Origin: Candidatus Omnitrophota bacterium
GTDB lineage: Bacteria > Omnitrophota > Gorgyraeia > Gygaellales > Profunditerraquicolaceae
Length of the DNA: 64,000 bases
Reading direction: 5' to 3'
NCBI GenBank assembly: GCA_028715785.1
Contig: JAQURC010000007.1
Coordinates: 22,884-86,883, forward strand
This document shows, in pieces, positions 2,442 to 58,838 of this stretch; the stretch's first letter is position 1, and each line of letters starts with the position of its first letter. The notes under the pieces were generated by a model, which was not told the DNA's origin, did no database searches, and saw only the letters and a program-made list of their open reading frames with translations. Position numbers and translations under genes: made by a program.

Positions 2442-3698
2442 TTAGAAATATTCCTGGTAAACTTCCTTGAAGCGGTTTATCGCTTTGAAAAATAAATTTT
2501 TGGCAGGCTTGACTAAAGGCGAACTCCCTACGGTCTTATTTTCTAAATCTTCACAGACCATTCCCAGGCAGGTCAGGTAAGTCAGGTATTTTTGCCCGGC
2601 TAAATCATTATTTTCCTTGACTAACGCGGCGATCTCCGGATTTTTAATCCGGCCGATCTTAACCGGAATACCCATTAAACTCTCCGTCATCTCGATGAAC
2701 CCATCGGTCAAGAGCGTTTTGCCGGCCATGACAAAATGATCAATTTCATGCAAAGCCACCTTTTTCTCTATGGCATCCTTAATCTGCGCGCAGATCAGGC
2801 GGCCGGAATTGGTGGTCATTAAAGCCACATCGCGTTGTTTCAGGGGTTTATAGAATTCATCTTTCTTGACCAAGATTTCCTTATTTTCCGCAATACTGCC
2901 GGCATCGCCGATAACTCCGTAAGAACGCTTGATATCTTCTGCCAGCTCAAAATTAATTTTTAATCCTTCCGAGAGCTGGGCTGTCATACTGTTGCCGCCT
3001 AAAGATAGGATCTGGATATCCTGCAGGAGCCCGTCTTTAAATATAAGCAGTTCCGTAACATCGCTGCCACAATCGCAAAATACGCTCAACCCTTTTTTTT
3101 CTTCCCTGCCAAACACTGCCTTGCTGGTAGCCAGCCCCGAAAAAGAAAGGTCCCTGATCTCATAACCGACCTGGCTGATAACCCGGCTTAAGCTCTGCAA
3201 GGAAGAGATCCTGGCGCAGACCAGATACAGGTCCACTTCCAGCCTGTGGCTGTATAAACCGATAGGATTAATAACATTGCTTTTGGAATCAATGGTGTAG
3301 CTTGACGGGATCACATGGATTATTTCCTCTTCCAAGCTGGAGCCAAGGATGCGCGCCTGTTCATTAGCGCTGGCTATATCGGTGGAGGTGATCACCTTAT
3401 TGCCGCGTTCGGCAAGCGGGATGATCGCGTGGCTGTGTTTGGTTAAGATATCCTTTCCGGAAAAATTAGCATGGACATACTTAATCCTCAATCCGGATCT
3501 GGTTTTCAGGCTCTTAATAATTTTTGTCAGGCAAACCACTAATTGCGTCGCATCGACAATCACCCCTTCTTTAACGCCGGAGGATGGCATAACATCAAGA
3601 AAAATATTCTCTATCCGGTTTTTCCTTATCTTTGCCAGGCAGCCTGCGATTTTATTCGAACCTATGTCTATTGCGCAAATATAATTATTATTTAACAT
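2442..3698 (-). CDS. ftsA: cell division protein FtsA (actin-like ATPase)
   Basis: 418 aa with an N-terminal ICAIDIGSNKIAGCLA phosphate-1 motif and SHS2 insert, the last gene of the dcw cluster. Confidence 0.9.
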   Translation of the reverse strand: MLNNNYICAIDIGSNKIAGCLAKIRKNRIENIFLDVMPSSGVKEGVIVDATQLVVCLTKIIKSLKTRSGLRIKYVHANFSGKDILTKHSHAIIPLAERGNKVITSTDIASANEQARILGSSLEEEIIHVIPSSYTIDSKSNVINPIGLYSHRLEVDLYLVCARISSLQSLSRVISQVGYEIRDLSFSGLATSKAVFGREEKKGLSVFCDCGSDVTELLIFKDGLLQDIQILSLGGNSMTAQLSEGLKINFELAEDIKRSYGVIGDAGSIAENKEILVKKDEFYKPLKQRDVALMTTNSGRLICAQIKDAIEKKVALHEIDHFVMAGKTLLTDGFIEMTESLMGIPVKIGRIKNPEIAALVKENNDLAGQKYLTYLTCLGMVCEDLENKTVGSSPLVKPAKNLFFKAINRFKEVYQEYF

Positions 3699-4476
3699 TG
3701 TTGAGCTTGATCACCGGCTCCTTAAACCTAAGGTCAATATATTTTATATTGCCCCACTCCTTACGCGCCTGGAGAATCAGGCCGCCTAAGATTATCATTT
3801 TTTGCCTGATATTACTTTGCCCTGTGCGCACCTCAAAACCCGCCCACTCTGTTTGGGCAACGGGTTTTGTATAATCGGCCGGCTGTTTGGGCAGAAGAAT
3901 GAAAAAACCCGCGCTCTCCGGGTCCGCCACATCAATTCTTTTCAAGGTAAAACCCTGAAAAGTTTTATTGGCTTTAAATTCCTTAATTATGCTTAAAGCC
4001 AGATCAATTTCAGCCCTTCTGTATCTTGTTCCCGGCTTGGGGGCAAATATCTTTGTTTCCAAGCCATAGACTACCGGCAGAGCCGCCTCCTCAATAGCCG
4101 CATTTGGATAGAACAACACCCCCTGCTCATCTATGGCAAAATCTTTATAGAATTTAACCAGGGCAAGAGGCTGGCGTTTCAGGAAATCCACAAATACGCA
4201 GTTGGGAAGTATCCGGGCAAGCCTGACCTTGCGGCAATCCGGGCAGCTTAAAATAGCCCTGCGGGATTCACCGTTTAAATCCAGGCTAAAAATATTCCTG
4301 CCTTTCAAATAATCAAACGACCTGTCGGAATTCCTCACGACAACCCGGCTAACGGCAAAGAAATCCGAACGCGTTAAAACCCTCCAAATATATCCTATTA
4401 TAAAAGAGAAGGCAAGTAAAATTATTGCCGTAAATAAAATAATCTTTACCGGAAAATTAAACCTTTGCTTTTTCAT
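3688..4476 (-). CDS. ftsQ: cell division protein FtsQ/DivIB (POTRA domain)
   Basis: 262 aa with a single N-terminal TM segment followed by a POTRA-like domain. Sits between ddl and ftsA as in canonical dcw clusters. Confidence 0.8.
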   Translation of the reverse strand: MKKQRFNFPVKIILFTAIILLAFSFIIGYIWRVLTRSDFFAVSRVVVRNSDRSFDYLKGRNIFSLDLNGESRRAILSCPDCRKVRLARILPNCVFVDFLKRQPLALVKFYKDFAIDEQGVLFYPNAAIEEAALPVVYGLETKIFAPKPGTRYRRAEIDLALSIIKEFKANKTFQGFTLKRIDVADPESAGFFILLPKQPADYTKPVAQTEWAGFEVRTGQSNIRQKMIILGGLILQARKEWGNIKYIDLRFKEPVIKLNNVK

Positions 4477-5401
4477 AACCTAATTCCAGCAGCTTAAGAC
4501 AGAGCCGGTTAAAATCTATGCCGATGATTTTGGCAGCCTTGGGCAAGAGGCTGGTTGCGGTCATCCCCGGTATGGTATTGACCTCCAGGACATAAGGCAA
4601 ACCGTCTTTACTCAATATGATATCCGTGCGCGAGCAGCCAAAACACCCCAGGAGCTTATGCGCCGCTAAAGCTGTTTGCTGGACTTTTTTAGCAAGGCCC
4701 TCCTCTAAATGAGCAGGGATAATATAATCCGTTAATCCCGCCTGGTATTTAGCTTCGAAATCAAAAAATTTATTTTTGGGGATAATTTCGATTACCGGCA
4801 AAGCCATCTCATCCAAAACCCCCACCGTCAACTCCCTTCCAAATATGTATTCTTCGATAATTATGCGTTCGTCAAACTGAAAAGCCAGTTCGATAGCCGC
4901 GGATATCCCTTTATCAGCCTCCACAAGCGAAAGCCCGATACTTGAACCGTGATTAGCCGGCTTGATTACCAAAGGCAGCCCGAGGTCATTTTCATAAATC
5001 CTGTTTTTCCCATAGGCTGATTTCTCTAAAAAATGGGATTTAGGCACGCACAACCCTGCGTCTTTGAATTTCTTTAGCGAACTGATCTTGTCCATAGCCA
5101 GCCGGCTGGCCGCGACTCCGGAAGCGGTATAAGGCAAATTCATTTTTTCCAGGATATCCTGGATTGAACCGTCTTCTCCAAAACGGCCGTGCAAAGCAAT
5201 GAATACGGAATTTAAATTATGGCTTTGAAGCCGCCGGATATTCTCTTGCGCATTATCAGTGGTTATATCAATACCTACCGCATCTACCCCCAATTCAAGC
5301 AGCGCGGATAATACGGCCTTGCCGCTTTTCAAAGAAATCCCCCTCTCGGAAGAAGGCCCGCCCATTAAAACCCCGACCCTGCCAAAATCCTTTATCTCCA
5401 T
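4457..5401 (-). CDS. ddl: D-alanine--D-alanine ligase
   Basis: 314 aa with an ATP-grasp fold (GVLMGGPSSERGISLKSG, EVNTIPGMT). Confidence 0.9.
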   Translation of the reverse strand: MEIKDFGRVGVLMGGPSSERGISLKSGKAVLSALLELGVDAVGIDITTDNAQENIRRLQSHNLNSVFIALHGRFGEDGSIQDILEKMNLPYTASGVAASRLAMDKISSLKKFKDAGLCVPKSHFLEKSAYGKNRIYENDLGLPLVIKPANHGSSIGLSLVEADKGISAAIELAFQFDERIIIEEYIFGRELTVGVLDEMALPVIEIIPKNKFFDFEAKYQAGLTDYIIPAHLEEGLAKKVQQTALAAHKLLGCFGCSRTDIILSKDGLPYVLEVNTIPGMTATSLLPKAAKIIGIDFNRLCLKLLELGYEKAKV

Positions 5402-6273
5402 ATTTTTATCTCTGGCTGCAAATTAATTTTAAATCTCTCTTTTACTTTTCTGCGCATTAAATCCATAAGCGACAAAACATCGCCGCTCTTTGCTTTACCT
5501 AAGTTTAGAATAAAATTTGCATGGACCCTGGAAATCAAGGCTGCGCCTTTTGTTTTCCCCTTTAATCCGCAGGCATCAATAAGTGAGCCAGCCGGAGATT
5601 TAGCCGGATTCTTAAAAACACACCCGGCATTAGGCAGGCTGCTGCCCTGAGTTTTGCTGCGCTTCAAAAGATATTCTTTGATTTTAAAAGCGATCCTCTC
5701 TTTATCCGCGGGATGTAATTTAAGTTTCGCCGAAAGAATAATATATTTATTTAAATTGGATTTCCGGTAAGCAAACTTTAATTTCCTGCCGGCCAAAAGC
5801 TTCTGCCTGCCGTTATAATCCAAAACGGATACTTCCTTGACTTGCTCCCCTATTGACTTGCCCCAGGCGCCGGCATTACCGGCCAATGATCCTCCCAGGG
5901 TCCCGGGGACTCCGGCAAGAAACTCTAAACCGGACAGGCCTTTATCTTTAGCAAATAAAATCAACTGATTTAATTTTAAGCCGCTTCCGGCTGTTATGCA
6001 AGTACCTTTATTGTCCAGACCTTTAAAATCCCGGCCGCTTAACTTAATTACCATCCCATCTATCCCGGAATCGCTGGCTAAAATATTACTGCCGGCTCCC
6101 AATATGAAAACTTTCACTTTCGCCTTCCTGGCACAGGCCAAGGCCTCTTGCAAACTTTTAAGGTCCCTTGGCTCAAAGAAGAACCTCGCCCTGCCGCCGA
6201 TCTTAAAACTCGTAAGATCGGCCAGCTTTATTCCGGTTTTTATTTCTTTATTTAAGTTTTTCGGCCAGAGCAT
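5392..6273 (-). CDS. murB: UDP-N-acetylenolpyruvoylglucosamine reductase
   Basis: 293 aa with an FAD-binding PCMH domain (KIGGRARFFFEP...ILGAGSNIL). Confidence 0.9.
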   Translation of the reverse strand: MLWPKNLNKEIKTGIKLADLTSFKIGGRARFFFEPRDLKSLQEALACARKAKVKVFILGAGSNILASDSGIDGMVIKLSGRDFKGLDNKGTCITAGSGLKLNQLILFAKDKGLSGLEFLAGVPGTLGGSLAGNAGAWGKSIGEQVKEVSVLDYNGRQKLLAGRKLKFAYRKSNLNKYIILSAKLKLHPADKERIAFKIKEYLLKRSKTQGSSLPNAGCVFKNPAKSPAGSLIDACGLKGKTKGAALISRVHANFILNLGKAKSGDVLSLMDLMRRKVKERFKINLQPEIKIWR

Positions 6274-7606
6274 CGGAAACCTTTACAATATCTCCTGCGC
6301 CTAGAGTAATCACCAGGTCATTCTCGCAGATAATCCCTAAAACATGCTCAAGGATATCCTCTTTAGGCAAATACAGGACTTCTTTATCTTTAGCGTGTTC
6401 CTTTATTTTTTCCATTAATTTCCGGGCGGCCACACCCTCTATGGGCTCTTCGCTTGCCGCGTAAATATCCGTAATAATCAGGTAATCCGACTGGTCAAAA
6501 GACTTGGCAAAATCATCTAAGAGCAGCTGCGTGCGGGTATAACGATGCGGCTGGAAGATAACAATCAAGCGCCCGGCTTTTAAATTAGCGATTGCCGCCA
6601 AAGTAGCTTTTATTTCCGAAGGATGATGGGCATAATCATCGATCACCAGGTATTTGTCACTCTTAAATTTTATCTCTAACCTGCGGCCGGCCCCTTTATA
6701 GCCTTCCAGGGTCCTGCGGATACAATCCAGATCAATACCCAGCTCCATGCCTAAGCCAATTACCGCCAAAGAATTTGAAATATTATGTTTGCCCCCCAGG
6801 GCCAGGTGGAAACGGCAGACAAATTTATGTTTAAAATAACAATCGAAATCCGAAACTAAACCGCTAAATGAAATATTCCTGGCGTTTATATCGGCGTTGC
6901 TATTTAAACCAAAAGACAGATGCCTGCCTTTATAGATGCTCATCATATTTAAAAGATTAGGGTCATCGGAACAGGTAAAAACACAGCCCCCTTTTTGAGT
7001 GCGCCCTATAAAAGAGTTAAAGGCCTCCAATTCATTATCGAAATTATGGTAATAATCCAAATGCTCCCGGTCGATATTGGTAATAATCGAATATTTAGGC
7101 GCATAATTTAAGAATGAACCGTCGGATTCATCGGCTTCGGCGACAAAAAAATCGCCATCCCCCAGGCAGGCATTGGTATCAATATTATTAAGTATCCCTC
7201 CGATAGCTACCGTGGGGTTTAACCCGGCCTCAAGCAGCATATAAGAAACCAATGAAGTAGTGGTAGTTTTACCGTGGCTGCCGGCAACGGTTATGGCGGT
7301 CTTGCCCTGCATCAGGCCGGCTAATGCCTCTGCCCTTTTAATCAGAGGCATTCCTAAAGCTTTGGCCCGCAGTATTTCGGGGTTATCCGCACCGATCGCC
7401 GAAGAATAAACCAGCACATCCTGGCCGGTAATATTTGAGGCGTTGTGGCCGATGGATATCTTGGCTCCCAGGCCTTTAAGCTCATCGGTAATATGGTTCT
7501 CCTTTAAGTCTGAACCGCTTACCTTAAAACCGCTTTTAAGCATTAGACGGGCGATCCCGCTCATCCCTATTCCGCCGATTCCGATAAAATGATAATATTT
7601 TTTCAT
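6248..7606 (-). CDS. murC: UDP-N-acetylmuramate--L-alanine ligase
   Basis: 452 aa with a Mur ligase N-terminus (HFIGIGGIGMSGIARLM) and the GSHGKTTTTS P-loop. Confidence 0.92.
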   Translation of the reverse strand: MKKYYHFIGIGGIGMSGIARLMLKSGFKVSGSDLKENHITDELKGLGAKISIGHNASNITGQDVLVYSSAIGADNPEILRAKALGMPLIKRAEALAGLMQGKTAITVAGSHGKTTTTSLVSYMLLEAGLNPTVAIGGILNNIDTNACLGDGDFFVAEADESDGSFLNYAPKYSIITNIDREHLDYYHNFDNELEAFNSFIGRTQKGGCVFTCSDDPNLLNMMSIYKGRHLSFGLNSNADINARNISFSGLVSDFDCYFKHKFVCRFHLALGGKHNISNSLAVIGLGMELGIDLDCIRRTLEGYKGAGRRLEIKFKSDKYLVIDDYAHHPSEIKATLAAIANLKAGRLIVIFQPHRYTRTQLLLDDFAKSFDQSDYLIITDIYAASEEPIEGVAARKLMEKIKEHAKDKEVLYLPKEDILEHVLGIICENDLVITLGAGDIVKVSDALAEKLK

Positions 7607-8373
7607 TCTAAAATATATGTCTTCCAGGCGTTTTCAAAATCTTCCATACCGGCAAAAGAATATGCCTTTGATAAAGCTCTGGCTAAATTTTTATCGTCCC
7701 GCAGGCTCTGGCAGAAAAATACGAACCTGTCTCTGCCAAACTCTGAAATTAAATACTTTACCAGGCTATACGATTCCGCATAAAATAATTCTACCTTTGC
7801 CCTGTCTCTTGAACCGGACACCTCTGTCCGGCTTAACTCATCCAGGCTAATGAAATTACCCTGCCTTAGCTTATTGGCCAGATACGCCTTTACCGAAGAA
7901 ATATCCCTCTGCTGATAGCCGGCGACTCCTTCCTGGAGCCAAAGGGGGACGGCTGGATTATTAAAACCCACCATCTCGTTAAAAATAATATGCGCCAATT
8001 CATGCGGAAGGATATTATCCAAAAATCCCGGGGCGGTTTGAAAAGTCATAATTGTCTTGCTGGCGACATTTGCCTCTCCTGCCGACCAGTCCGCGGCATG
8101 GGTTTCTTTTTTGTATTCCTCATGGTTATTAAAGAGATAAATTTTTGCCCGGTTATCCCAGGTCCAAAAATTAAAACGGTTAAAGCCTAAATCCTCAGTA
8201 ATACTATTATAACAGTTCTCGGCTTTTTGAGCCAACTCATTGAGTGAATTTTCCGAGGCATCTTTATAAAAAACCACAAAATGCGTGCTTTTAAATACCT
8301 GCCAACCCTGGCCATCCGCAAAGACAGCCAATGGAAGCAACAAGAATATAAAGAATAATTTAAATCGGCGCAT
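7603..8373 (-). CDS. secreted HExxH zinc metallopeptidase-like protein (gluzincin/Peptidase_MA-like), embedded in the dcw cluster
   Basis: 256 aa with an N-terminal signal peptide (MRRFKLFFIFLLLPLAVFA). A HELAHIIF motif is followed 24 aa later by LWLQEGVAGY, giving an HExxH...E arrangement. The start overlaps the murG stop and the stop overlaps the murC start. Confidence 0.6.
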   Translation of the reverse strand: MRRFKLFFIFLLLPLAVFADGQGWQVFKSTHFVVFYKDASENSLNELAQKAENCYNSITEDLGFNRFNFWTWDNRAKIYLFNNHEEYKKETHAADWSAGEANVASKTIMTFQTAPGFLDNILPHELAHIIFNEMVGFNNPAVPLWLQEGVAGYQQRDISSVKAYLANKLRQGNFISLDELSRTEVSGSRDRAKVELFYAESYSLVKYLISEFGRDRFVFFCQSLRDDKNLARALSKAYSFAGMEDFENAWKTYILE

Positions 8374-9491
8374 TAATTTAAACTTAACACTTCCTTAGCT
8401 AATAAACAAGAGGCATCCGGGACAGAAAACTGCGCGTATGCCTGGCGCATGGCTTCTAGCTTCTCCGGATCTGCTAAAAATACATTTAATTTATCGCTTA
8501 ATTTTTCCACAGACAATTCCTCATCTTTGATGATCAGGGCGGCCCCGGCATCCGCCAGTATACGGGCATTGGCCTCTTGATGGCCGTAAGCAAAAGGATA
8601 AGGAATCAATATCGCCGGGATCCTGAATTTCTGCAATTCCGAGATTGTCGCCGCTCCCGAGCGGCAGATTACCAGGTCCGCTACGCTATAAGCATATTGC
8701 ATGGCCGGAAAAAATTCAAACAACCCGCAGCTTAAATCCAAAGAGCCATATTTTGATTTAAGCCGGGGATAATCCCGGGTTCCCGAAATATGTATCAGTT
8801 GCAGGCCGTCTTTTTTTGGATAAGCAGTTATTGCCTCAAAACAAACAGAATTTAACTTGACCGACCCCTGGCTTCCTCCGGTAATTAATATATTGAATTT
8901 TCCTTCCTTAAACTTAAAAAAATCCAACGCCTGCTTTCTATCTATCAGGATCAAATCCTTGCGCAGAGGATTACCCGTTACGGCAATTTTTTTAGCGGAT
9001 ATATTTAGATATTTATTTGTCTGGCTAAAGGACACCGCTACCCTGTCAGCCAACTTAGCCAATAACCGGTTTGCCCTGCCGGGAATAACATTCTGTTCAT
9101 GAATTATGGTTTTTATCCTGAATAACCAGGCCCAGAAGATCAGGGCTACAGTATTAAGGCTGCCGAATCCAACCACCACATCCGGCCGGAATTTTAAAAT
9201 AATCAGCATCCCTTCCCAGGCGCCCAATAAAAATGAACACGCGCCGGCGATATTCCTGCCGCTTAAATTAAAACTTAAAGCAGCCGCGTGGATGTATTTA
9301 ATTTGCGCAAATCCAACGGGGATATTATTATCCTTGCTTCTCTTTGGTAAGACTAAGAGCAAATCAGCGCATGAATCCTTTAATGCATCTACCAAAGCCA
9401 GCGCGGGAAAAATGTGCCCGCCGCTTGAGCCGCTGACAACCAAAACACGCATTAGTGAATCTCCGTTAAGGATACTCTCCGGTACGGGCAA
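8373..9491 (-). CDS. murG: UDP-N-acetylglucosamine--N-acetylmuramyl-(pentapeptide) pyrophosphoryl-undecaprenol N-acetylglucosamine transferase
   Basis: 372 aa with a GT28 fold (VVSGSSGGHIFPALAL...GGSQG). Confidence 0.9.
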   Translation of the reverse strand: MPVPESILNGDSLMRVLVVSGSSGGHIFPALALVDALKDSCADLLLVLPKRSKDNNIPVGFAQIKYIHAAALSFNLSGRNIAGACSFLLGAWEGMLIILKFRPDVVVGFGSLNTVALIFWAWLFRIKTIIHEQNVIPGRANRLLAKLADRVAVSFSQTNKYLNISAKKIAVTGNPLRKDLILIDRKQALDFFKFKEGKFNILITGGSQGSVKLNSVCFEAITAYPKKDGLQLIHISGTRDYPRLKSKYGSLDLSCGLFEFFPAMQYAYSVADLVICRSGAATISELQKFRIPAILIPYPFAYGHQEANARILADAGAALIIKDEELSVEKLSDKLNVFLADPEKLEAMRQAYAQFSVPDASCLLAKEVLSLN

Positions 9492-10560
9492 TGTTGATTA
9501 ATATGCCCAGGCTGACCATATCAAATATCAGCGAAGAACCGCCATAGCTGATAAAGGGCAGCGGTAAACCTTTCGTGGGAAAAACCCCGCAAGAAACACC
9601 GATATTTACAATCGCCTTAAGGGAAATCATCAGGACCAGCCCCAGGGCAAGAAAATATCCGAATTTATCCTGGGCATTCTTGATAATTTTAAGCCCCTGC
9701 TGGATAAAGATCATAAAGAGCGCGACTATTCCCAGTGTACCGGCCAAGCCCAGCTCTTCTCCGATAATCGAAAAAATAAAATCCGTGTGGGCGGCCGGAA
9801 GATAAAAAAGCTTCTGTTGTGAATGCCCAAGCCCCCTGCCGAATAATCCGCCGGAGCCGATGGCAATCTGTGATTGGATAATCTGAAAGCCCGTGCCCTT
9901 AGGGTCGAGCCAGGGGTTTAAAAACGCCAGGATCCTGCTGCGCCGGTAAGGGACTTTAAAAACCAAAAGATAAAGCGCCGGCAAACTGCAAAGCAATAAA
10001 CTCAAAATATAACTTCCTCTTGAGCCGGCGACAAAAAGCATGATCAGGATTACGCTGCCCAAAGCAATGACCGTACCCAGATCCGGCTGTAAAAGTATGA
10101 GCAAAGCGATTGCCCCCAATACGCATACCGGAGGTATAAATCCTTTAAGCAGCAGCTTGATCTTGTCTCCTTTGCGGCAAATAAAATCTGAAATATAAAT
10201 AATCAGCGCCAGGTTGGCAAACTCCGCCGGCTGGAAGCTGATAAATTTAAATCTAAACCAACGCCTGGCTCCGGAGACCTCCCTGCCGATGCCGGGAATA
10301 AGCACTAAAACAAGCAGGGCAAAAGCGATCCAAAGCAACAGGCGGGCGTGTTTTCTGAACAGGTGATAATCAACAAGCATGACTAAGAAAGTCAATAATA
10401 GCCCTGCCAGTAAAAAAAATAAATGCCGTTTTAAAAAATAAAAACTATCTCCGTACTTCTCCCAGGCATAAATACTTGAAGAGCTATAAATCATCACTAT
10501 GCCGATACAGATAAGCAGGACTGATATAGTAAACAGATTAATCCGTGTTTTTCTAACCAT
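9466..10560 (-). CDS. ftsW: peptidoglycan glycosyltransferase FtsW (SEDS family)
   Basis: 364 aa, polytopic, with SEDS signature regions. Sits in the dcw position between murD and murG. Confidence 0.88.
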   Translation of the reverse strand: MVRKTRINLFTISVLLICIGIVMIYSSSSIYAWEKYGDSFYFLKRHLFFLLAGLLLTFLVMLVDYHLFRKHARLLLWIAFALLVLVLIPGIGREVSGARRWFRFKFISFQPAEFANLALIIYISDFICRKGDKIKLLLKGFIPPVCVLGAIALLILLQPDLGTVIALGSVILIMLFVAGSRGSYILSLLLCSLPALYLLVFKVPYRRSRILAFLNPWLDPKGTGFQIIQSQIAIGSGGLFGRGLGHSQQKLFYLPAAHTDFIFSIIGEELGLAGTLGIVALFMIFIQQGLKIIKNAQDKFGYFLALGLVLMISLKAIVNIGVSCGVFPTKGLPLPFISYGGSSLIFDMVSLGILINIARTGEYP

Positions 10561-11830
10561 CTATTGAGGCTGCGCTGCCTAAATTCAGCACAATTTCCTT
10601 AAAGGCCCTGCCCCGGTCTTCGTAATCTTTGAACATATCAAAACTCGAGCACATCGGCGATAATAATACCGAATATCCCGGCTTGGCCAAAACAAATGCC
10701 TTCTCTACCGCCTCCTTTAAACTGGAGGCATTTTGTATCGGAAATTCACCGCCAAGCGCAGCGGCGATCTTCTCTTTTGCCTCTCCGATAAGGACCAGGT
10801 GTTTAACCTTGTCCCGGGCGCACTCGCGGATTACCCGGTAATCAATCCCTTTGTGCCTGCCTCCGGCAATAAGGATTATGGGGGTATTGATATTCTCAAT
10901 TGCCCAGATTGCCGAATCTGCCGTCGTTGCTTTGGAGTCATTGATAAATTTTACCCCGTCAATTTCCCGCACATCCTCCAGGCGGTGCTGGATCCCTTTG
11001 AATTTACCAAAGACATCCAGAATCAACCCTTTATCAATCCCCAATATTCTCCCGACACTAAGGACTGCGCTCTGATTAGGGTTGAGGCCATCCTGCTTGT
11101 TAAAAAAAACGACTTTTGATTTCGCCTGGGCGGCAATCTCTTTAAGCAAAGCGTCATCCGCGTTTAAAATTAAAAAATCATCCTGGCCCTGATTCAGCAT
11201 AATCCGCTTCTTGGCATCCAAATACTCCTGCATGTTATTATAGCGGTCAAGATGATTGGGGGTTAAATTCAAAATCACCGCAATTTTAGGCTTAAAGCCC
11301 CTGATCGTCTCAAGCTGGAAGGAGCTTACCTCAAGGACAACAAAATCGCCCTCCTGCATTGCCTCCACTTCACCGCAGAATGGATTGCCGATATTTCCGC
11401 ATACAAAAACTCTCTTTCCTGCCGCAGCCAAAACTTTTCCGATCAAGGTAGTCACCGTGGTTTTCCCGTTTGAACCGGTTACCGCGATAATCTGGGCAGG
11501 ACATAAGATACTTGCCACCTCAATTTCACTGACGACCGGTATATTAAATTCGCCTGCCCACTTGATCGGCAGGGCATCCGCAGGCACCCCGGGAGAGATA
11601 ACCACTAAATCCGCCTGCTTGATAAAATCCCGGCTGTGCCTGCCCAATTCAACTGAAATATCGCCTGAACAAAGTTTGGCGCAAGCCTCTTTGGTCTGCG
11701 CATTATCTTTGTTATCCGTAATGCTCACGGAAGCCCCCAGCCCATGCAACAGGTTAACGCAGGCTATCCCGGAGCGGGCAAGGCCGACAATGGTTATCTT
11801 TTTGTTTTTAAAGTAACTGCTATTACGCAT
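10553..11830 (-). CDS. murD: UDP-N-acetylmuramoylalanine--D-glutamate ligase
   Basis: 425 aa with a Mur ligase fold (ITIVGLARSGIA...VTGSNGKTTVTT). Confidence 0.9.
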   Translation of the reverse strand: MRNSSYFKNKKITIVGLARSGIACVNLLHGLGASVSITDNKDNAQTKEACAKLCSGDISVELGRHSRDFIKQADLVVISPGVPADALPIKWAGEFNIPVVSEIEVASILCPAQIIAVTGSNGKTTVTTLIGKVLAAAGKRVFVCGNIGNPFCGEVEAMQEGDFVVLEVSSFQLETIRGFKPKIAVILNLTPNHLDRYNNMQEYLDAKKRIMLNQGQDDFLILNADDALLKEIAAQAKSKVVFFNKQDGLNPNQSAVLSVGRILGIDKGLILDVFGKFKGIQHRLEDVREIDGVKFINDSKATTADSAIWAIENINTPIILIAGGRHKGIDYRVIRECARDKVKHLVLIGEAKEKIAAALGGEFPIQNASSLKEAVEKAFVLAKPGYSVLLSPMCSSFDMFKDYEDRGRAFKEIVLNLGSAASIDG

Positions 11831-11833
11831 AGG

Positions 11834-12922
11834 TTATCTGATTTTTAACGTAACTAAGGTAAAGAGGGCAAGTAAACCGGCAACGATCCAGAACCTGACA
11901 ATTACTTTGTTCTCAGGCACATCCAAAAACTGAAAATGATGGTGCAGCGGGGCGATTCTAAAAATACGCTTTTTGGTCAGCTTGTAAGTTCCCACTTGCA
12001 ATATAACCGAGAGCGCCTCCAGGACAAATATGCCTCCGACAATGATCAGCAGCATCTCTTTTTTGATCAATAACGCCACTGTCCCGATAGCCCCGCCTAA
12101 GGCCAGCGATCCGACATCTCCCATGAAGATCGAGGCAGGATAACAGTTAAACCAGAGAAAACCCAAACCCGCTCCCACGATACTGGCGCAAAAAATAGTC
12201 AGTTCTCCGGCGCCTTTGATATAAGGGATCAGGAGGTAATTGCTTAAATTAAGGTTGCCGGAAACATAGCTTAACACGCTAAAGGCAATGCCCACCATCA
12301 CCATGATGCCGATAGCCAGCCCGTCTAGTCCGTCGGTGAGATTCACGGCATTGGATGAACCGGTAATTACCAGGATCACAAATAAAATATACAAACCGTC
12401 CAAATCAAAACCGCCGCCTTTGAGAAAAGGAATCTCAAGCCTGGCATTATACTGAGTATCCATAATGATAATTATACCCAAGATCAAACCCAGGATAACC
12501 TGGCTGGCAAGTTTTACGCTGGGAGAAATGCCCCTGGCCTTGTTTTTTATCTGCTTAAAATAATCATCCATAAATCCGGTCAAGCCCAGCCAAACAGTGC
12601 TGAATAAAACAACCCAAATACAGCGATGGGTAATATCCGACCAGAGCAGGGTTGAAACTACCACTGCCCCAAGTATAAGAATCCCTCCCATCGTCGGAGT
12701 GCCCTGCTTATTGTGATGCAGCTCATCCAGCTTCAAGCTATCCGCTTTATTTATCTTCTCTCCGACTTTAAGCGCCTTTAATTTTTTGATTAACGGCGGG
12801 CCGAAAATCAGGCTCAGGATAAAAGCAGTCAAGGCAGCCATGACCGCGCGAAAGGTAATGTAGCGGAATATATTGAAAGCAAAAATTAAATCCCTAAGAG
12901 GATAAAATAAATGGTAAAGCAT
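11834..12922 (-). CDS. mraY: phospho-N-acetylmuramoyl-pentapeptide transferase
   Basis: 362 aa polytopic membrane protein with MraY motifs (NAVNLTDGLDGLA, VGSL). Confidence 0.9.
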   Translation of the reverse strand: MLYHLFYPLRDLIFAFNIFRYITFRAVMAALTAFILSLIFGPPLIKKLKALKVGEKINKADSLKLDELHHNKQGTPTMGGILILGAVVVSTLLWSDITHRCIWVVLFSTVWLGLTGFMDDYFKQIKNKARGISPSVKLASQVILGLILGIIIIMDTQYNARLEIPFLKGGGFDLDGLYILFVILVITGSSNAVNLTDGLDGLAIGIMVMVGIAFSVLSYVSGNLNLSNYLLIPYIKGAGELTIFCASIVGAGLGFLWFNCYPASIFMGDVGSLALGGAIGTVALLIKKEMLLIIVGGIFVLEALSVILQVGTYKLTKKRIFRIAPLHHHFQFLDVPENKVIVRFWIVAGLLALFTLVTLKIR

Positions 12923-14283
12923 TAAACTTTAAAAACCTCCTCCATTTTCATCGACCGGGACCCCTTTACCAGGATTATATCGGAAACGCCCGGAGATATT
13001 TTATCGAACAGTAAATCCCTGGCCTGCGGGGCGCTGGCGCAACAAAATATATCTTTACGCTTAAAGCCTCCCTCTGCGGCTGCCTGGGCCGTGATCCGGG
13101 CCAAGCTGCCCACTGCTACTAACACATCACAGGTATTAGTTATACTCCTGGCGATTTGCCTATGCAATAATTCTTTTTGCCTGCCTAACTCCAGCATATC
13201 CCCCATAATTAAAATTTTTTTACCTTTGCACTTGGCGGCAGTTAGAGCCGTAAGCGCCGCTTCCAAGGAAAGGGGATTGGAATTGTAGGTATCGTCGATA
13301 AAAGTAAGCCCCTTAAATTCAATAAGATTAAGCCTGCCCTTGGGAAATTTGAAAGCAGCCAGCCTTGCGGCAATTTCAGGATAACTCAAGCCCAATATCC
13401 TGCTCACCGAAATTGCGGCTAAGGCGTTATAGATATTATAATAGCCCAAGGTGGATAATGCAAAAACAAATTTGGAGTTGACTTCAAATTCTAATTTAGC
13501 GTTACGGAATTTGATCGCGGATGCGCAAAAATCGCTCTTCTCGTTAATCCCGTAAGTAAAAACATGCGCCCCCTTATCCTTGCGTGTAATTATACGTTTG
13601 AGCAATTTGTCGTCGGCGCAAACAACCGCAATTCCGGGCTTGGCTAAATTATCCAGCAGGGTTGATTTCTCTTTCAAAACCCCGTTTAAATTTCTTAAAA
13701 ACTCAAGGTGGCTTAAGCCGATATTGGTAATTACCCCGATATTAGGACAGGCAATCCTTGCCAGGTAATCGACCTCCCCGAAATGATTAGTGCCTATCTC
13801 AACTGCCGCAAAATCATCTTTTTCCGAAAGCCGGATTAATGTCTGGGGCAGGCCGATCTGATTATTCTTGGTCCCTTCATTTTTCAATACCCGGGCATTG
13901 CCTGATAAAATCCAGGCGATCATCTCTTTAGTTGTGGTCTTGCCGTTTGAACCGGTAACGGCAATAACCGGCAGCTTAAATTTTTGCCTCTGGAACCTTG
14001 CTATGTCCCCTAAAGCCAAAGTCGTGTCTTTTACCTTAACCACCGCTATCCCTTCAGGGATCGGGCATTCAGGCATTCTTTCGACAATTAAACCGCCGGC
14101 TCCTGACTTTAAAGCCCCGGCAATAAAATCATGGCCGTCAAAATTATTTCCCTTTAAAGCCAAAAACGCCTCCTGCGGCTTTATTCCCCTTGAATCGGTA
14201 GAGACAGTCTTCAGCCTATCCGCCGGCTTTCCCTGGATAAGCTTACCGCCTGCGGCTTTGATTATTTCATTGACTTTAAACAC
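12922..14283 (-). CDS. murF: UDP-N-acetylmuramoyl-tripeptide--D-alanyl-D-alanine ligase
   Basis: 453 aa with a Mur ligase fold (VIAVTGSNGKTTTKEM). Confidence 0.9.
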   Translation of the reverse strand: MFKVNEIIKAAGGKLIQGKPADRLKTVSTDSRGIKPQEAFLALKGNNFDGHDFIAGALKSGAGGLIVERMPECPIPEGIAVVKVKDTTLALGDIARFQRQKFKLPVIAVTGSNGKTTTKEMIAWILSGNARVLKNEGTKNNQIGLPQTLIRLSEKDDFAAVEIGTNHFGEVDYLARIACPNIGVITNIGLSHLEFLRNLNGVLKEKSTLLDNLAKPGIAVVCADDKLLKRIITRKDKGAHVFTYGINEKSDFCASAIKFRNAKLEFEVNSKFVFALSTLGYYNIYNALAAISVSRILGLSYPEIAARLAAFKFPKGRLNLIEFKGLTFIDDTYNSNPLSLEAALTALTAAKCKGKKILIMGDMLELGRQKELLHRQIARSITNTCDVLVAVGSLARITAQAAAEGGFKRKDIFCCASAPQARDLLFDKISPGVSDIILVKGSRSMKMEEVFKV

Positions 14284-15677
14284 TTCAGGACCACCTCTTT
14301 ATCGTTAAAATGCACGGCCCCATCTTTTAAGACCTGATAATTTTCATGGCCTTTACCGGCAAGCAGCAAACAATCGTCTTTTTTGGCCATAGATAACCCC
14401 GCGCGGATGGCTTCAAAACGCCCGGGCTTGCGGCAGTAATTATTTTTATCAATACCCGCGCAGACATCTTCGATTATCCGCAGCGGATCCTCGGAGCGGG
14501 GGTTATCGCTGGTAATAATCGCGTAGTCTGCCAGCTCCGTAACCACCCTGCCCATTTTCGGCCGCTTTAGCTTATCGCGCTCTCCTCCGCAGCCAAAGAC
14601 TACGATCATCCTGCCCTTGACCAACGGCCTTAAGGCGCTGATGACATTAAATAGCGCATCCGGAGTATGCGCGTAATCCACAAAAATACTGTATCCTCTT
14701 TTACAGACAACCTTCTCCAGCCTGCCGCAGACATTCTTGAATTTTTCTATGGCGGACTTGATATCTTTTATGCTTAGTTTCTCGCTTATGCCCCAGGCAA
14801 TAGCCGCCAGCATATTATAAATATTATGCCGGCCCACAAGGTGCGTTTTGATCCGCAGATTTATTTTTGGCGCAACCAAAGTAAATTCAGCCCCATGCAT
14901 GTCAAAATCAATATCTTTAGCCATAACCGCCGAAGGCCTTTTTATGCCATAAGTCAGGATCTTAGCGCCAGTCAACCGCTTGATCCGGCGGCCATAGCTG
15001 TCATCGTTATTGATTATTGCCACTCCGGATGAAGGCAAAGAACGAAAAAGCCTGGCTTTTGCCTGGAAATAATTTTCTAAATTCTTATGATAATCCAGAT
15101 GGTCCTGGGTAAGGTTGGTAAAAATAGCGCGGTTAAAGTTGATCCCCGCTACCCTGTCCTGGTCCAAAGCGTGGGATGAAACCTCCATGGCGCAATATTT
15201 AACGCCTCCGGCATACATCCGGGCAAGCAAACTTTGCAATTCTACGCAGCCCGGCGTGGTATTTTTAGATTCGATCACTTTACCTTTAAAATGATAATCG
15301 ATCGTGCCGATTACTCCGCAGGCGTGTCCGGATTCTTTAGCCAAAGCTTCAATCAAATATGAAATAGTCGTTTTACCATTGGTACCGGTGGTACCGACGA
15401 CCTTAAGTTTAGCCGAAGGAAACCCGTAAAATTTGTTTGCCGCTTTGGCTAAAAATTTACGGCAATCATTTACCGTAATTAATTTGACCTTTCCGGGAAT
15501 TTTTATCTGCGGCCTTTTTTTCTGAACAACCACGGCGCTGGCGCCCCGGGCAATTGCCTCATTGATAAAACAGCTTCCATCCTGGCGGTTCCCCTTGATG
15601 GCTACAAAAACAAAACCTTTCTTTACCTGCTTGGAGTCGGAAGTAATGCCTTTAATTTTAATACCTGCGATTTTCAT
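14262..15677 (-). CDS. murE: UDP-N-acetylmuramoyl-L-alanyl-D-glutamate--2,6-diaminopimelate ligase
   Basis: 471 aa with a Mur ligase fold (VGTTGTNGKTTISY). Confidence 0.9.
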   Translation of the reverse strand: MKIAGIKIKGITSDSKQVKKGFVFVAIKGNRQDGSCFINEAIARGASAVVVQKKRPQIKIPGKVKLITVNDCRKFLAKAANKFYGFPSAKLKVVGTTGTNGKTTISYLIEALAKESGHACGVIGTIDYHFKGKVIESKNTTPGCVELQSLLARMYAGGVKYCAMEVSSHALDQDRVAGINFNRAIFTNLTQDHLDYHKNLENYFQAKARLFRSLPSSGVAIINNDDSYGRRIKRLTGAKILTYGIKRPSAVMAKDIDFDMHGAEFTLVAPKINLRIKTHLVGRHNIYNMLAAIAWGISEKLSIKDIKSAIEKFKNVCGRLEKVVCKRGYSIFVDYAHTPDALFNVISALRPLVKGRMIVVFGCGGERDKLKRPKMGRVVTELADYAIITSDNPRSEDPLRIIEDVCAGIDKNNYCRKPGRFEAIRAGLSMAKKDDCLLLAGKGHENYQVLKDGAVHFNDKEVVLKCLKSMK

Positions 15678-17371
15678 TGTGCCAGGGCCACAGTAGGCAT
15701 TTCATTTCCTTTTAGATAACGTATCGCATCCCCGGCGACCTTTTGGAACACCGGAGCAGCGACTACCCCGCCAAAATAAACCGGATGCGGCTCATCAACC
15801 GTTACGACAATAGCCAGCAATGGATCCTCAGCGGGGGAAAAACCGATAAAAGAAGCGACAAATTTATTATGTGAATAAGCGCCGTTGGCTTCAAGCTTCT
15901 GGGCGGTCCCGGTTTTTCCCGCGGCGCTGAATCCGGAAACCTTGGCCAGCCTGCCGGTGCCCTCCTCTACTGCTCCGGTAAGGATCTTCTTGATGCGCAT
16001 GGCAGTATCGACTGAAATTACCTTGCGGATCAATGCGGGCTTATTCTGCTTGATCACCTGGCCCTGATTATCGCGCACCGAATCAATAATATAAGGCTTC
16101 ATCAGTTGCCCGCCATTGGCAATTACCGAAATTGCGCTGGCCAATTGTAAAGCAGTCACCCCAACCTCCTGTCCGATAGGTATGGCGGTAATCGATGTCT
16201 TTGACCACTGGCGCACCGGCTTGATCATTCCGGAAATTTCTCCCGACAGGTCAATCCCCAATTTTGACCCAAAACCAAAAGCCTTTAAATACCGGTAAAT
16301 CGTGTCGGGGCCCAAAATTTGGGCGACTTTTACGGTGCCGATATTGCTTGACTCTTCAATTACCTGCTTAAAAGTAAGCAAGCCATGCGACTGATGATCA
16401 TGCAAGATGCGTCCGGCTACCCGATAAGATCCATTCTCGCAGAAGAAAGCGTCCTCTTCTTTAACCTTTTTCTCTTCGAGGGCAGCCGAGGCAGTGACAA
16501 TTTTAAAAACCGATCCGGGCTCAAACAAATCGCAAATAGCCCGGTTGCGTATCGCATCCTTGCCGACTCCGGAATAGTGATTTAGATCATAATTGGGGCG
16601 GCTGGCCATAGCCAAAATCCTGCCCGTATGAGGGTCCATCACGATGATGCTGGCGCCTTTTGCGTGAAAACTCTTAAAGGCCTTATCCAGCTCTCTTTCG
16701 GCGATATATTGAATAACCTCATCGATAGTCAGAACCAGGTCCAAACCATCGACGGGCAAAACCATCTTTTCCCAAATGTCTAATTTTTTTAAGCGCGCAT
16801 CGCGTAAAAAAACCGCCCAGCCGGGTATCCCCGCCAGATACCGGTTAAAATCCCTTTCTACCCCCTCCAAACCCAGATTATCCATTCCGCTAAAACCAAT
16901 TACGTGGCTGGCCAGATAGCTGTTAGGATAAATACGCTTGGTCTCCTTCATAAACCCCAGGCCCTTAATATTTAATTTCTTGATTGCCTCGGATTTCTCC
17001 GGAGCCAGTTTACGCGCTATCCAGATAAATGACTTTTTGCGGCTTAATCTTTCCTGCAGATAAGCGCGCTCCACTCCCAATATAGGCAACAGCTGCCTGA
17101 TCACAATTTCTTTATTCTTAATCGCATTGGGTACCGCATACAAGGAATCCAGGGACATGTTAAATGCCTGCATCTTAAGATTACAGTCATAGATTGCCCC
17201 GCGCCGCGGCTCAAGCTCCACAAGTTGGTTATGCTGCTTATTCGCTATTGAAGTAAGGTAATTTGAACGGAAAAACTGGATGAAAAAAAGGCGGCTTACG
17301 CAGATCAGGAGAAAAATAAAAAAGACTAAAAATACCGCCTCGTTCCTTCGGCGATAATTGCTGATATACAT
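15674..17371 (-). CDS. ftsI: peptidoglycan D,D-transpeptidase FtsI (class B PBP)
   Basis: 565 aa with an N-terminal TM anchor, a PBP dimerisation domain, and a transpeptidase with SVFK, SSN and KTGT motifs. Confidence 0.9.
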   Translation of the reverse strand: MYISNYRRRNEAVFLVFFIFLLICVSRLFFIQFFRSNYLTSIANKQHNQLVELEPRRGAIYDCNLKMQAFNMSLDSLYAVPNAIKNKEIVIRQLLPILGVERAYLQERLSRKKSFIWIARKLAPEKSEAIKKLNIKGLGFMKETKRIYPNSYLASHVIGFSGMDNLGLEGVERDFNRYLAGIPGWAVFLRDARLKKLDIWEKMVLPVDGLDLVLTIDEVIQYIAERELDKAFKSFHAKGASIIVMDPHTGRILAMASRPNYDLNHYSGVGKDAIRNRAICDLFEPGSVFKIVTASAALEEKKVKEEDAFFCENGSYRVAGRILHDHQSHGLLTFKQVIEESSNIGTVKVAQILGPDTIYRYLKAFGFGSKLGIDLSGEISGMIKPVRQWSKTSITAIPIGQEVGVTALQLASAISVIANGGQLMKPYIIDSVRDNQGQVIKQNKPALIRKVISVDTAMRIKKILTGAVEEGTGRLAKVSGFSAAGKTGTAQKLEANGAYSHNKFVASFIGFSPAEDPLLAIVVTVDEPHPVYFGGVVAAPVFQKVAGDAIRYLKGNEMPTVALAQ

Positions 17372-17380
17372 AGAAATCTA

Positions 17381-17435
17381 GGGGACGGTTCTGTTTTTCC
17401 GTCATCTGGCTAGGTTGAAAAATAGAACCGTCCCC
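17381..17435 (-). promoter_or_regulatory. Extended stem-loop filling the ftsL-ftsI intergenic gap
   Basis: GGGGACGGUUCU pairs with AGAACCGUCCCC (12 bp) and continues into UUUUUC/GAAAAA. This gives about an 18-bp stem with a 17-nt loop, ending 10 nt upstream of the ftsI ATG. On the minus strand it is not followed by a clean U-tract, so it is more likely an attenuator, processing site or RBS-occluding structure than a terminator. Confidence 0.5.
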
Positions 17436-17446
17436 TTTGCTTTTTA

Positions 17447-17815
17447 TTAAGGGTTAATTGTTTTTGCTTGAGCTTCCCGCTTTAAGCTAAAAATCCGCGC
17501 CAGCAGGCCTTCCCTGTTCTGGCTCTGGTCCGCAAGCCTTAAGCCTTCTTTGGAAGGGACAAACTTAACAAAACGGTAATTATCCGGCATCTGGAAATCC
17601 TGGGTCTGGCTTATACGGTTACCGATATTTACCAAAGAAGAGCTTTTATTAATATTATATCTTAAGGCGGTGTTTTTATCCAGCAATTCCGTAAAGACAG
17701 CCTGCTTCTTCTGGCCCAAATAAGCCAGGCGGAAAATCTCGCTTTGCTGGTAAACATAAAGCACTGAAAAGGAAGTAATAAATACTACCGTAGATAAAAA
17801 CTTGGTCAGCTTCAT
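17447..17815 (-). CDS. ftsL: FtsL-like cell division protein (small bitopic)
   Basis: 122 aa with a single N-terminal TM helix followed by a coiled-coil-like region. Sits between rsmH and ftsI as in canonical dcw clusters. Confidence 0.65.
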   Translation of the reverse strand: MKLTKFLSTVVFITSFSVLYVYQQSEIFRLAYLGQKKQAVFTELLDKNTALRYNINKSSSLVNIGNRISQTQDFQMPDNYRFVKFVPSKEGLRLADQSQNREGLLARIFSLKREAQAKTINP

Positions 17816-17821
17816 ATTGTC

Positions 17822-18724
17822 CTATATCCTTTGGGCTACCCTGAACTTAGAGCTGCGGCTGGAGGGATTTTTTTCTATCTCGCTAGCCATAGGAGTCAGG
17901 GGTTTGGTTGTAATAATATCGATTGTTCCGTCGGCTTTAAGCGCGCGGAATGTATGTTTAATTACGCGATCTTCTAAAGAATGAAAAGAAATTACGCATA
18001 TTCTAGCCTGCTTTTTTAAAATTGCAACGGCTTTTTTAATCGCGCTTTCTAAAATTTCCAGCTCCCGGTTCACCGCGATTCTCACTGCCTGAAAAGTGCG
18101 GGTAGCCGGATGGATGCGGTAATAACTCCTGCGGTACCTGTGCGGAATAGCCCGCACCACCAGATCCGCTAATTGCCTGGTGGTAGCAATCGGAGCCGCC
18201 TTGCGCTCTTCAACCAACAGATGGGCAATACGGTTATGCCAACGTTCCTGGCCGAAACTCCAGAGCAGATGCGAGATTTCATTTTCATTGAGGTTATTCA
18301 CTAAATCATACGCGGATATATAACTGCTTTTATCTAAACGCATATCTAGCGGCCCCTCCTCCTGGAAACTAAACCCTCTCTGGGGATCTTTTAATTGATA
18401 AGTAGAAATCCCCAGATCAAAAACAATTCCGTCAATACTATCTATGCCCAGCCCCGCTAAAACCTGGTCTAAATCCGAAAAATTAGCGTGCACAAATTCG
18501 CAGGCGCCTTTAAATTCACTTAACCTTTGCCGGCAAATTTTCAACGAGTCCTCGTCCCGGTCTATCCCGATCAATCTGCCCCCGGGAGTGATCCTTTTTA
18601 ATATCTCCAAACTATGCCCGCCGGTTCCCATCGTGGCATCAACAATCGTTTGCCCGGGCGCAAGTTTCAGATAATCTATAACTTCAGCCAGCATTACCGG
18701 CGTATGCAAAGGCGCTTCTAACAT
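17822..18724 (-). CDS. rsmH: 16S rRNA (cytosine1402-N4)-methyltransferase
   Basis: 300 aa with a SAM-binding DATMGTGGHS motif, in the MraW position. Confidence 0.9.
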   Translation of the reverse strand: MLEAPLHTPVMLAEVIDYLKLAPGQTIVDATMGTGGHSLEILKRITPGGRLIGIDRDEDSLKICRQRLSEFKGACEFVHANFSDLDQVLAGLGIDSIDGIVFDLGISTYQLKDPQRGFSFQEEGPLDMRLDKSSYISAYDLVNNLNENEISHLLWSFGQERWHNRIAHLLVEERKAAPIATTRQLADLVVRAIPHRYRRSYYRIHPATRTFQAVRIAVNRELEILESAIKKAVAILKKQARICVISFHSLEDRVIKHTFRALKADGTIDIITTKPLTPMASEIEKNPSSRSSKFRVAQRI

Positions 18725-46279: not shown

Positions 46280-46299
46280 ATCTTGTCTTGCCCCCTTTA

Positions 46300-47958: not shown

Positions 47959-47971
47959 AATTTTACTCTCA

Positions 47972-48013: not shown

Positions 48014-48017
48014 ATAA

Positions 48018-48939: not shown

Positions 48940-49041
48940 AAACCCCTTGACTAATGGGGAGTATTACAACAGCTTTATGGACATCTGTATACGGCTTATA
49001 AACAGGTCAATATCATCTTTGATTAAAACATCAATAAATTA

Positions 49042-58833: not shown

Positions 58834-58838
58834 ATTTA

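Follow-up and report, generated by a model that had tools for sequence, protein, structure and literature searches.

A predicted secreted gluzincin metallopeptidase gene between murG and murC in the dcw cluster of Omnitrophota and its paralogues in type II secretion operons

A stretch of 64,000 nucleotides (nt) from a Candidatus Omnitrophota bacterium (assembly GCA_028715785.1, contig JAQURC010000007.1, positions 22,884 to 86,883), referred to here as the window, carries a division and cell wall (dcw) cluster in the order mraW-ftsI-murE-murF-mraY-murD-ftsW-murG-X-murC-murB-ddl-ftsQ-ftsA, in which X stands for a gene at 7603–8373 encoding a predicted secreted zinc metallopeptidase. An earlier note on this DNA had singled out the open reading frame (ORF) of X, and it is real: it encodes 256 amino acids (aa) on the minus strand and runs from ATG to TGA. 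According to the ORF list of the window, the opposite strand within X holds no ORF of 80 aa or more. A chance ORF was considered and ruled out by the Pfam score, the homologues and the synteny described below. The cluster is complete and co-directional, with X between murG and murC as the note had placed it, and X is not a canonical dcw gene, as had also been stated, all other genes of the cluster and their order being canonical.

There is no intergenic space at either boundary of X. Of two 4-nt overlaps claimed previously, the one between the X stop and the murC start (ATGA) was found as described, whereas the murG stop and the X start (TAATG) share only 1 nt. Such overlaps of a stop with a start codon speak for joint transcription and translational coupling but for no more than that, and the fixed stoichiometry with the Mur enzymes that the note had read from them is not implied. 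Promoter- and terminator-like sites in the dcw cluster were no more numerous than the shuffled expectation.

A word-indexed search returned 290 homologues of X, and the top 120 were 53–100% identical to it, about 256 aa long and from Omnitrophota wherever they were named. In addition, a scan of GTDB species-representative genomes gave 330 stretches encoding a relative of X, the best 80 of which, together with four loci from exact look-ups (L001–L084), were inspected for dcw synteny by tblastn. The insertion, whose presence in relatives the earlier note had proposed to check, was found as murG-X-murC in all 83 of the 83 loci spanning both junctions, including those of 80 GTDB species-representative genomes, with X identities of 41–85%. 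Moreover, the order murF-mraY-murD-ftsW-murG-X-murC-murB-ddl-ftsQ-ftsA was kept in every locus that reached the neighbours (X identity at least 41%). The 4-nt overlap of X with murC recurred in 55/83 loci; the two genes overlapped or lay no more than 10 nt apart at this junction in 74/83 loci, and the same held at the murG/X junction in 62/83. Mean identity to the window protein was 51.3% for X, 51.6% for MurG, 52.3% for FtsQ, 55.8% for MurB and 65.9% for MurC, and judged from these values X is under constraint like that of its neighbours, comparable to that on MurG. The named dcw-type matches, for which the best 80 of the 330 genome matches were inspected, were nearly all from Omnitrophota, with a few metagenome-assembled genomes (MAGs) labelled Planctomycetales, Margulisiibacteriota or simply 'bacterium'.

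The arrangement murG-X-murC was also found in the metagenome loci L086, L136, L142, L148 and L158. Three of these (L136, L142 and L148) are divergent dcw loci, possibly from a deep lineage of Omnitrophota or from a phylum close to it; no murB was detected in them by tblastn between murC and ddl, where the window and L001–L084 have one. Taking synteny and spacing as the guide, X is a fixed and selected component of the Omnitrophota dcw operon in the relatives examined, not a passenger.

The protein belongs to a recognised peptidase family. In the Pfam check that the earlier note had suggested, X matched Peptidase_MA_2 (PF13485) with 74.2 bits (E = 1.6e-20; gathering cut-off 32.4) over residues 77–254, corresponding to positions 22–199 of the 201 in the profile, and the same family was present in every listed homologue. 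X is 100% identical to a database protein (P0001) named by NCBI 'peptidase MA family metallohydrolase [Candidatus Omnitrophica bacterium]'. The other two families proposed in the note fared less well: no M48 match was reported by Pfam, and the SprT-like match reached only 13.1 bits against a cut-off of 25.6 and covered the HExxH helix alone (NCBIfam SprT: 13.3 bits against 175). Flagellinolysin (NF033876) was likewise rejected as an assignment, with 31.8 bits against an NCBIfam cut-off of 205. M1 (PF01433) was not reported for X and was weak in some orthologues; Peptidase_M9 of Pfam did not match X.

Specifically, X carries the zinc-binding motif HELAH (H124, E125 and H128), a predicted third zinc ligand (E148) and a predicted transition-state-stabilising Tyr (Y198). 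All five residues, including the HExxH residues whose conservation in orthologues had been left to be checked, are invariant among 25 dcw-type sequences (54–83% identity to X), and the H/E/H/E/Y equivalents are invariant among 24 T2SS-type sequences, that is, paralogues from type II secretion system (T2SS) operons. The dcw-type sequences are also invariant in the N-terminal sheet at W24, KSTH28–31, R66, F69, W70, W72 and R75.

An AlphaFold2 (AF2) model of X built from 25 homologues (predicted local distance difference test, pLDDT, 86.4; predicted template modelling score, pTM, 0.81) showed an N-terminal beta/alpha half with strands at residues 25–111 and an all-helical C-terminal half. The zinc-binding residues H124, E125 and H128 lie on the HExxH helix (117–135) and E148 on the ligand helix (144–151), as in gluzincins, and both the model and the Foldseek matches agree with the thermolysin-like fold of that group. 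Foldseek against the PDB gave gluzincins only (36 matches at E ≤ 1e-3), not the non-peptidase fold that the note had allowed for, and all 50 listed matches were M9 or M1 enzymes. The top matches were the peptidase domains of the M9 collagenases ColT, ColG, ColH and Vibrio VhaC (E from 4e-6 to 1e-4; query TM-score 0.55–0.65), followed by the M1 aminopeptidases IRAP, LTA4H, ERAP and APN. Additionally, a profile search of PDB sequences found the M1 cold-active aminopeptidase 3cia (E = 1e-4), in an alignment that superposes the HExxH motifs, E148 on the Glu of WL-x-EG ('WLNEG') and F197-Y198 on the Tyr of 'VPY', which we take to be the M1 catalytic Tyr (Tyr383 of LTA4H). The M1 exopeptidase motif GxMEN is absent from X; the equivalent strand reads W96-S-A-G99-E/Q, and its acidic residue is not conserved among the dcw-type sequences. 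X is thus a minimal, single-domain gluzincin, predicted to be secreted and very probably catalytically competent, and since it consists of the catalytic domain alone, without GxMEN, it is more likely an endopeptidase than an aminopeptidase. The note's description as a signal-peptide-bearing HExxH...E zinc peptidase is upheld, with X placed in clan MA, by Pfam, the alignments, the model, Foldseek and the profile search.

By sequence rules, the N-terminus of X (MRRFK followed by LFFIFLLLPLAVFA, then DGQ after the cleavage site) is a typical Sec signal for signal peptidase I without a lipobox Cys. P14 is invariant and A19 at least 90% conserved among the 25 dcw-type sequences, and an N-terminal hydrophobic run was found in 74 of 83 orthologous loci. 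In the model, pLDDT is low over the signal segment, which is normal for signal peptides. From these features we infer a periplasmic location. Taken together, the exported, conserved and syntenic character of X makes us highly confident that it is an active secreted gluzincin and a fixed member of the Omnitrophota dcw operon.

The family extends beyond the dcw cluster. At E ≤ 1e-3, 7,366 cluster representatives (50%-identity clusters) emerged from an exhaustive profile search, and 207 of them reached E ≤ 1e-30. A further 149 representatives share one architecture, namely a signal peptide, W..KS.HF..Y, LPHE.xH.IFR.F.G and then PLWLDEG.A, with HExxH present in 145 of the 149. When 366 sequences were clustered, two groups (196 sequences) held every known dcw-linked protein, and several other groups were 31–38% identical to these two. 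The T2SS-type paralogues, here called X', are 34–38% identical to X. Members of four of these other groups (L085, L087, L170 and L171) lie directly between the genes for T2SSF (GspF) and the major pseudopilin T2SSG, in operons of the order T2SSE-T2SSF-X'-GspG-pseudopilins-GspK-PilM/N. A metagenome scan seeded with the 24 T2SS-type paralogues gave at least 461 loci, and in about 57 of the best 80, which were inspected, X' adjoined T2SSF, a pseudopilin or both, standing directly between them wherever the contig reached both sides. Five of the other loci among the 80 were murG-X-murC; the rest were mostly too short to show neighbours or had other ones. In at least three loci (L087, L170 and L171), ATP synthase genes were observed upstream of the X' operon.

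Several minor contexts were found as well. In a third recurring one, a gene for an OmpA + LysM protein (both domains bind peptidoglycan) and a radical SAM gene precede the peptidase. In L149 the peptidase follows a MipA/Gcw_chp-like outer-membrane protein gene, and in L160 it is followed by genes for an ExeA-like AAA ATPase and a GspC-like protein, 55% and 27% identical, respectively, to their counterparts in the secretion locus of the window. A high-GC clade (L172, 3350–9809) is located in an oligopeptide ATP-binding cassette (ABC) importer operon of the order SBP_bac_5, peptidase, SBP_bac_5, OppB, OppC; in L161 (776–5648) the peptidase has an SBP_bac_5 gene on one side and an amidase gene on the other. 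These neighbours suggest a possible peptide-scavenging role in the L172/L161 lineage. Another clade (L168), which includes a protein from a MAG labelled Lentisphaerales, is found beside rhomboid and S49 protease genes. No informative domain fusions were seen among the longer family members, several of which have extensions without annotation; P0197 (409 aa) and P0254 (355 aa) include one with a C-terminal AhpC/TSA thioredoxin-like domain and one with an N-terminal zinc ribbon, which may be artefactual fusions made in gene calling. Table 1 collects the coordinates.

Table 1. Positions of the dcw cluster, of X and its sites, of the type II secretion-like locus in the window, and of family members in other loci
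Feature	Position	Strand	Basis or remark
Co-directional dcw cluster, mraW to ftsA	2442–18724	minus	ORFs and translations; order kept in L001–L084
mraW	17822–18724	minus	ORF translation
ftsI	15674–17371	minus	ORF translation
murE	14262–15677	minus	ORF translation
murF	12922–14283	minus	ORF translation
mraY	11834–12922	minus	ORF translation
murD	10553–11830	minus	ORF translation
ftsW	9466–10560	minus	ORF translation
murG, upstream neighbour of X	8373–9491	minus	Translation; L001 and L003 orthologues carry Glyco_transf_28 and Glyco_tran_28_C
X, predicted secreted single-domain gluzincin metallopeptidase, 256 aa	7603–8373	minus	Pfam, AF2 model, Foldseek
murC, downstream neighbour of X	6248–7606	minus	Translation; L001 and L003 orthologues carry Mur_ligase domains
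murB	5392–6273	minus	ORF translation
ddl	4457–5401	minus	ORF translation
ftsQ	3688–4476	minus	ORF translation
ftsA	2442–3698	minus	ORF translation
murG stop/X start junction, TAATG, 1-nt overlap	8371–8375	minus	Sequence
X stop/murC start junction, ATGA, 4-nt overlap	7603–7606	minus	Sequence
Signal peptide of X, residues 1–19, MRRFKLFFIFLLLPLAVFA, predicted cleavage after A19	8317–8373	minus	Sequence rules
HELAH zinc-binding/catalytic motif, H124, E125, H128	7990–8004	minus	Reverse complement CAT GAA TTG GCG CAT; invariant in dcw-type and T2SS-type alignments
E148, predicted third zinc ligand (PLWLQEG; PLWLxEG)	7930–7932	minus	19 residues between H128 and E148; invariant in both alignments
Y198, predicted transition-state-stabilising Tyr (F-Y-x-E-S)	7780–7782	minus	Invariant in dcw-type alignment; equivalent Tyr invariant in T2SS-type alignment
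T2SSE	60940–62655	minus
T2SSF	59735–60940	minus
N_methyl pseudopilin	59200–59661	minus
N_methyl pseudopilin, T2SSJ-like	58222–58833	minus
GspK-like	57177–58259	minus
PilM/N	55671–57140	minus
PilO-like	55135–55674	minus
PMT_2 glycosyltransferase	49496–50494	minus
ExeA-like AAA_22	46929–47750	minus
GspC-like	46300–46932	minus
Secretin	44375–46279	minus
X' in Omnitrophota T2SS operons	L085, L087–L139, L143–L146, L152, L153, L159, L166, L170, L171		Between gspF and gspG
OmpA-LysM context	L130 3172–6843; L155 3847–6798		Domains confirmed; small ORF before the peptidase in L130
OmpA-LysM-like layout	L157 3024–6007		Gene layout only; neighbours not domain-scanned

Some further features of the dcw region were observed. 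The listed start of murG is a TTG at 9491, which makes the gene overlap ftsW by 26 nt; the true start is probably an internal ATG (M14, MRVLVVSGSSGGH..., at about 9452), where the sequence MRVLVV... resembles the usual N-terminus of MurG. At the other end of the cluster, ftsA is followed not by ftsZ but by a gene for a YggS-type pyridoxal phosphate (PLP) protein (1306–1965; Ala_racemase_N) and then by a probable proC (471–1322), and L001 and L003 show the same non-ftsZ arrangement. The tubulin signature GGG[TS]G[STA]G is absent from all six frames of the 64 kb, and ftsZ, if present, must be located elsewhere in the genome. The minus strand carries nearly all long ORFs of the window, GC skew is below zero in 31 of 32 2-kb bins, and the cumulative skew falls almost monotonically; skew and gene orientation are consistent with a single replichore and with genes that are strongly co-oriented with replication.

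A type II secretion-like locus is found on the minus strand of the same window at 44375–62655, with a GC content of 0.34–0.41 versus about 0.45 elsewhere. It is split by an insertion sequence remnant (47737–48939), in which the adjacent plus-strand ORFs 48236–48676 and 48673–48939 resemble, on inspection by eye, a frameshifted integrase/transposase. Just upstream of the ExeA-like gene is an ORF of 73 aa (47737–47958) that is MerR-like by eye. The window holds no second family member or remnant, including beside the ExeA-like gene, where L160 carries a paralogue.

What X acts on is suggested by the company that its genes keep. In the mechanism that we propose, X would be exported by Sec and would act in the periplasm as a zinc metalloendopeptidase of about 237 mature residues, with an M1/M9-like catalytic domain, no accessory domains and no GxMEN. 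Sharing a transcript and translational coupling with murG and murC, it would therefore be made whenever the genes for lipid II synthesis and the divisome are expressed. It would then cut stem peptides or cross-links of existing peptidoglycan, allowing insertion or splitting of septal and lateral wall, and X' would do the same locally so that type II secretion machines could span the wall. Division and the assembly of secretion machines both need local remodelling of the wall, and secretion systems are known to have dedicated wall hydrolases, such as VirB1, EtgA, FlgJ and the T6SS (type VI secretion system) L,D-endopeptidase TagX. A wall peptidase dedicated to such machines is the most economical reading, because both operon types share a need for local opening of peptidoglycan and because several minor contexts (OmpA-LysM, MipA-like and ExeA-like) are wall-associated. 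That X is a periplasmic endopeptidase cutting peptidoglycan peptides where envelope machines are built is our tentative proposal and the likeliest of the readings, and it falls somewhat short of being probable. Both the catalytic activity of X and its peptidoglycan substrate are what we infer from the data above.

Several observations weigh against a wall substrate. We know of no clan-MA gluzincin established as a peptidoglycan peptidase; the known metallopeptidases of peptidoglycan belong to M15, M23, M14 and M74, and X matched none of these in Pfam. At E ≤ 1, its Pfam matches likewise included no M23 LytM, M15/LAS, NlpC/P60 or M14 peptidoglycan peptidase family. Furthermore, the closest structural relatives found by Foldseek cleave proteins and peptides of L-amino acids, and the clades found in the Opp-type importer operon (L172) and beside the rhomboid and S49 proteases (L168) point to general peptide or protein substrates. 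The secretion locus of the window, unlike most related loci, has no peptidase paralogue in the 73-nt gap between T2SSF and the first pseudopilin, so that not every such machine needs the peptidase. The argument for a peptidoglycan role is drawn from gene neighbourhood and is thus circumstantial, and the T2SS paralogues and the OmpA-LysM and MipA-like neighbours fit wall remodelling and protein processing or quality control equally well.

The second of these roles would make X a protease that controls the assembly or turnover of the machine without cutting the wall. Its clients might be, for example, the periplasmic parts of FtsI, FtsQ and FtsL or the wall hydrolases of the divisome, and those of X' might be pseudopilins, GspC/L/M or the secretin. 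There is precedent for such proteases in Prc/Tsp, which cleaves E. coli FtsI at its C-terminus and also degrades MepS, and in the periplasmic M48 zinc proteases BepA, YcaL and LoiP, which police the assembly of outer-membrane machines. Several points speak for it: the nearest folds belong to enzymes that hydrolyse proteins and peptides (M9 collagenases, M1 aminopeptidases); there is a weak similarity to flagellinolysin; the gene for X' lies precisely between those for GspF, the platform protein, and GspG, the major pseudopilin; other clades have rhomboid, S49 and peptide-importer neighbours; and we know of no clan-MA peptidoglycan peptidase. Set against this, neither a candidate substrate nor a cleavage motif was identified, the dcw and T2SS machines have no obvious common homologous periplasmic component that would explain paralogous proteases, and the neighbouring OmpA-LysM and MipA-like genes speak more for the wall than for a client protein. 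A protein-directed role of this kind, and the clients named for it, are possible but rather doubtful, although the role is nearly as likely as wall cutting. A more distant option would detach X from the machines altogether and make it an exo-enzyme for nutrition or predation, or a peptidase that scavenges peptides, whose dcw position would give only growth-coupled expression; the family would then be T2SS cargo, with the paralogues exported by the systems that encode them, or a periplasmic peptidase feeding importers. Zinc proteases are classic T2SS substrates, and cargo genes can be found in gsp operons. The clade inside the SBP_bac_5/OppB/OppC operon would suit this option, and so would the lifestyle of Omnitrophota, which have been proposed in published work to be predators or episymbionts with secretion-linked lytic proteins. 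The codon overlaps with murG and murC in most lineages, however, argue for selection on co-expression with wall synthesis, and the MurG-like conservation of X is not what a digestive enzyme would usually show. Genes for cargo tend to be peripheral and variable, whereas the position here is internal and fixed in both operon types, down to about 34–41% identity. We consider such a role improbable.

Lastly, X might be an inactive scaffold or regulator that uses a peptidase fold for binding, comparable to the degenerate LytM factors EnvC and NlpD, which activate amidases. Degenerate hydrolase folds are well known as divisome regulators, but these characteristically lose their catalytic residues, whereas all five predicted catalytic residues are invariant in both paralogue groups and HExxH is present in 145 of the 149 representatives, making this the remotest of the readings and a very improbable one. 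Returning to the wall-cutting proposal, its most specific form would make the X subfamily the first clan-MA peptidoglycan endopeptidase, dedicated to machines and hard-wired into the operons of two trans-envelope machines, with the dcw copy serving the septal wall and the gspF-gspG paralogue the T2SS. In this form the proposal is speculative and, as we judge it, on the unlikely side.

The dcw cluster is among the most conserved gene arrays of bacteria; phylum-wide fixed additions to it are rare and are usually a sign of lineage-specific changes in the building or splitting of the wall. Omnitrophota are ultra-small, largely uncultured bacteria of the PVC (Planctomycetes-Verrucomicrobia-Chlamydiae) group that have a complete peptidoglycan pathway and almost no cultured members. 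The literature searched on the Omnitrophota dcw cluster, PF13485 and the T2SS, which included a 2025 study of how far the dcw cluster is conserved across the PVC superphylum, a 2026 survey covering 176 complete Omnitrophota genomes and a 2023 description of Omnitrophota T2SS-like loci, made no mention of the X gene or of either context. Judged by gene order, the system is a variant of the canonical dcw cluster with an extra, phylum-wide gene for a predicted exported peptidase. The position of X' between gspF and gspG in Omnitrophota is newly described here, no earlier description having been found in that literature. X and its T2SS sister copies provide a concrete candidate for wall remodelling when cells divide and machines are assembled. 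Should peptidoglycan be the substrate, a new enzyme fold would join the repertoire of wall hydrolases; should it be protein, X would be a dedicated maturation protease of divisome and secretion system. In either case, a context is assigned to part of PF13485, a large family for which no functional characterisation was found in the literature searched.

Compared with known systems, X shares with the M1 aminopeptidases (ColAP 3cia, LTA4H and aminopeptidase N) the thermolysin-like domain, HExxH, the Glu of WL-x-EG and the downstream Tyr. These enzymes, however, are 600–950 aa long, with an N-terminal beta-sandwich and a C-terminal ARM/helical domain, and their GxMEN exopeptidase motif binds the N-terminus of the substrate, whereas X has 256 aa, lacks both domains and the motif, and is predicted to be secreted. 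The M9 collagenases (ColG, ColH, ColT and VhaC) are secreted zinc endopeptidases and the best structural match, but are only 14–17% identical to X, which lacks their activator, PKD and collagen-binding domains. Prc/Tsp and the BepA/YcaL/LoiP group act in the periplasm as proteases that influence the activity of the divisome or of wall hydrolases or that police assembly, and those of the BepA type are also HExxH zinc enzymes; X, in contrast, has no M48 or S41 match, and the genes of the Prc and BepA types lie outside the dcw operon. The likeness of VirB1, EtgA, FlgJ and TagX to X and X' is a functional one, in that the operon of a machine which has to pass through or reshape the wall includes a periplasmic hydrolase gene. 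They are lytic transglycosylases or peptidases of LAS or other folds with demonstrated wall activity, whereas X has an unrelated, predicted gluzincin fold. As for the cluster itself, the canonical dcw order is mraZ-mraW-ftsL-ftsI-murE-murF-mraY-murD-ftsW-murG-murC-(murB)-ddl-ftsQ-ftsA-ftsZ; the window departs from its ftsA-ftsZ ending and adds X between murG and murC.

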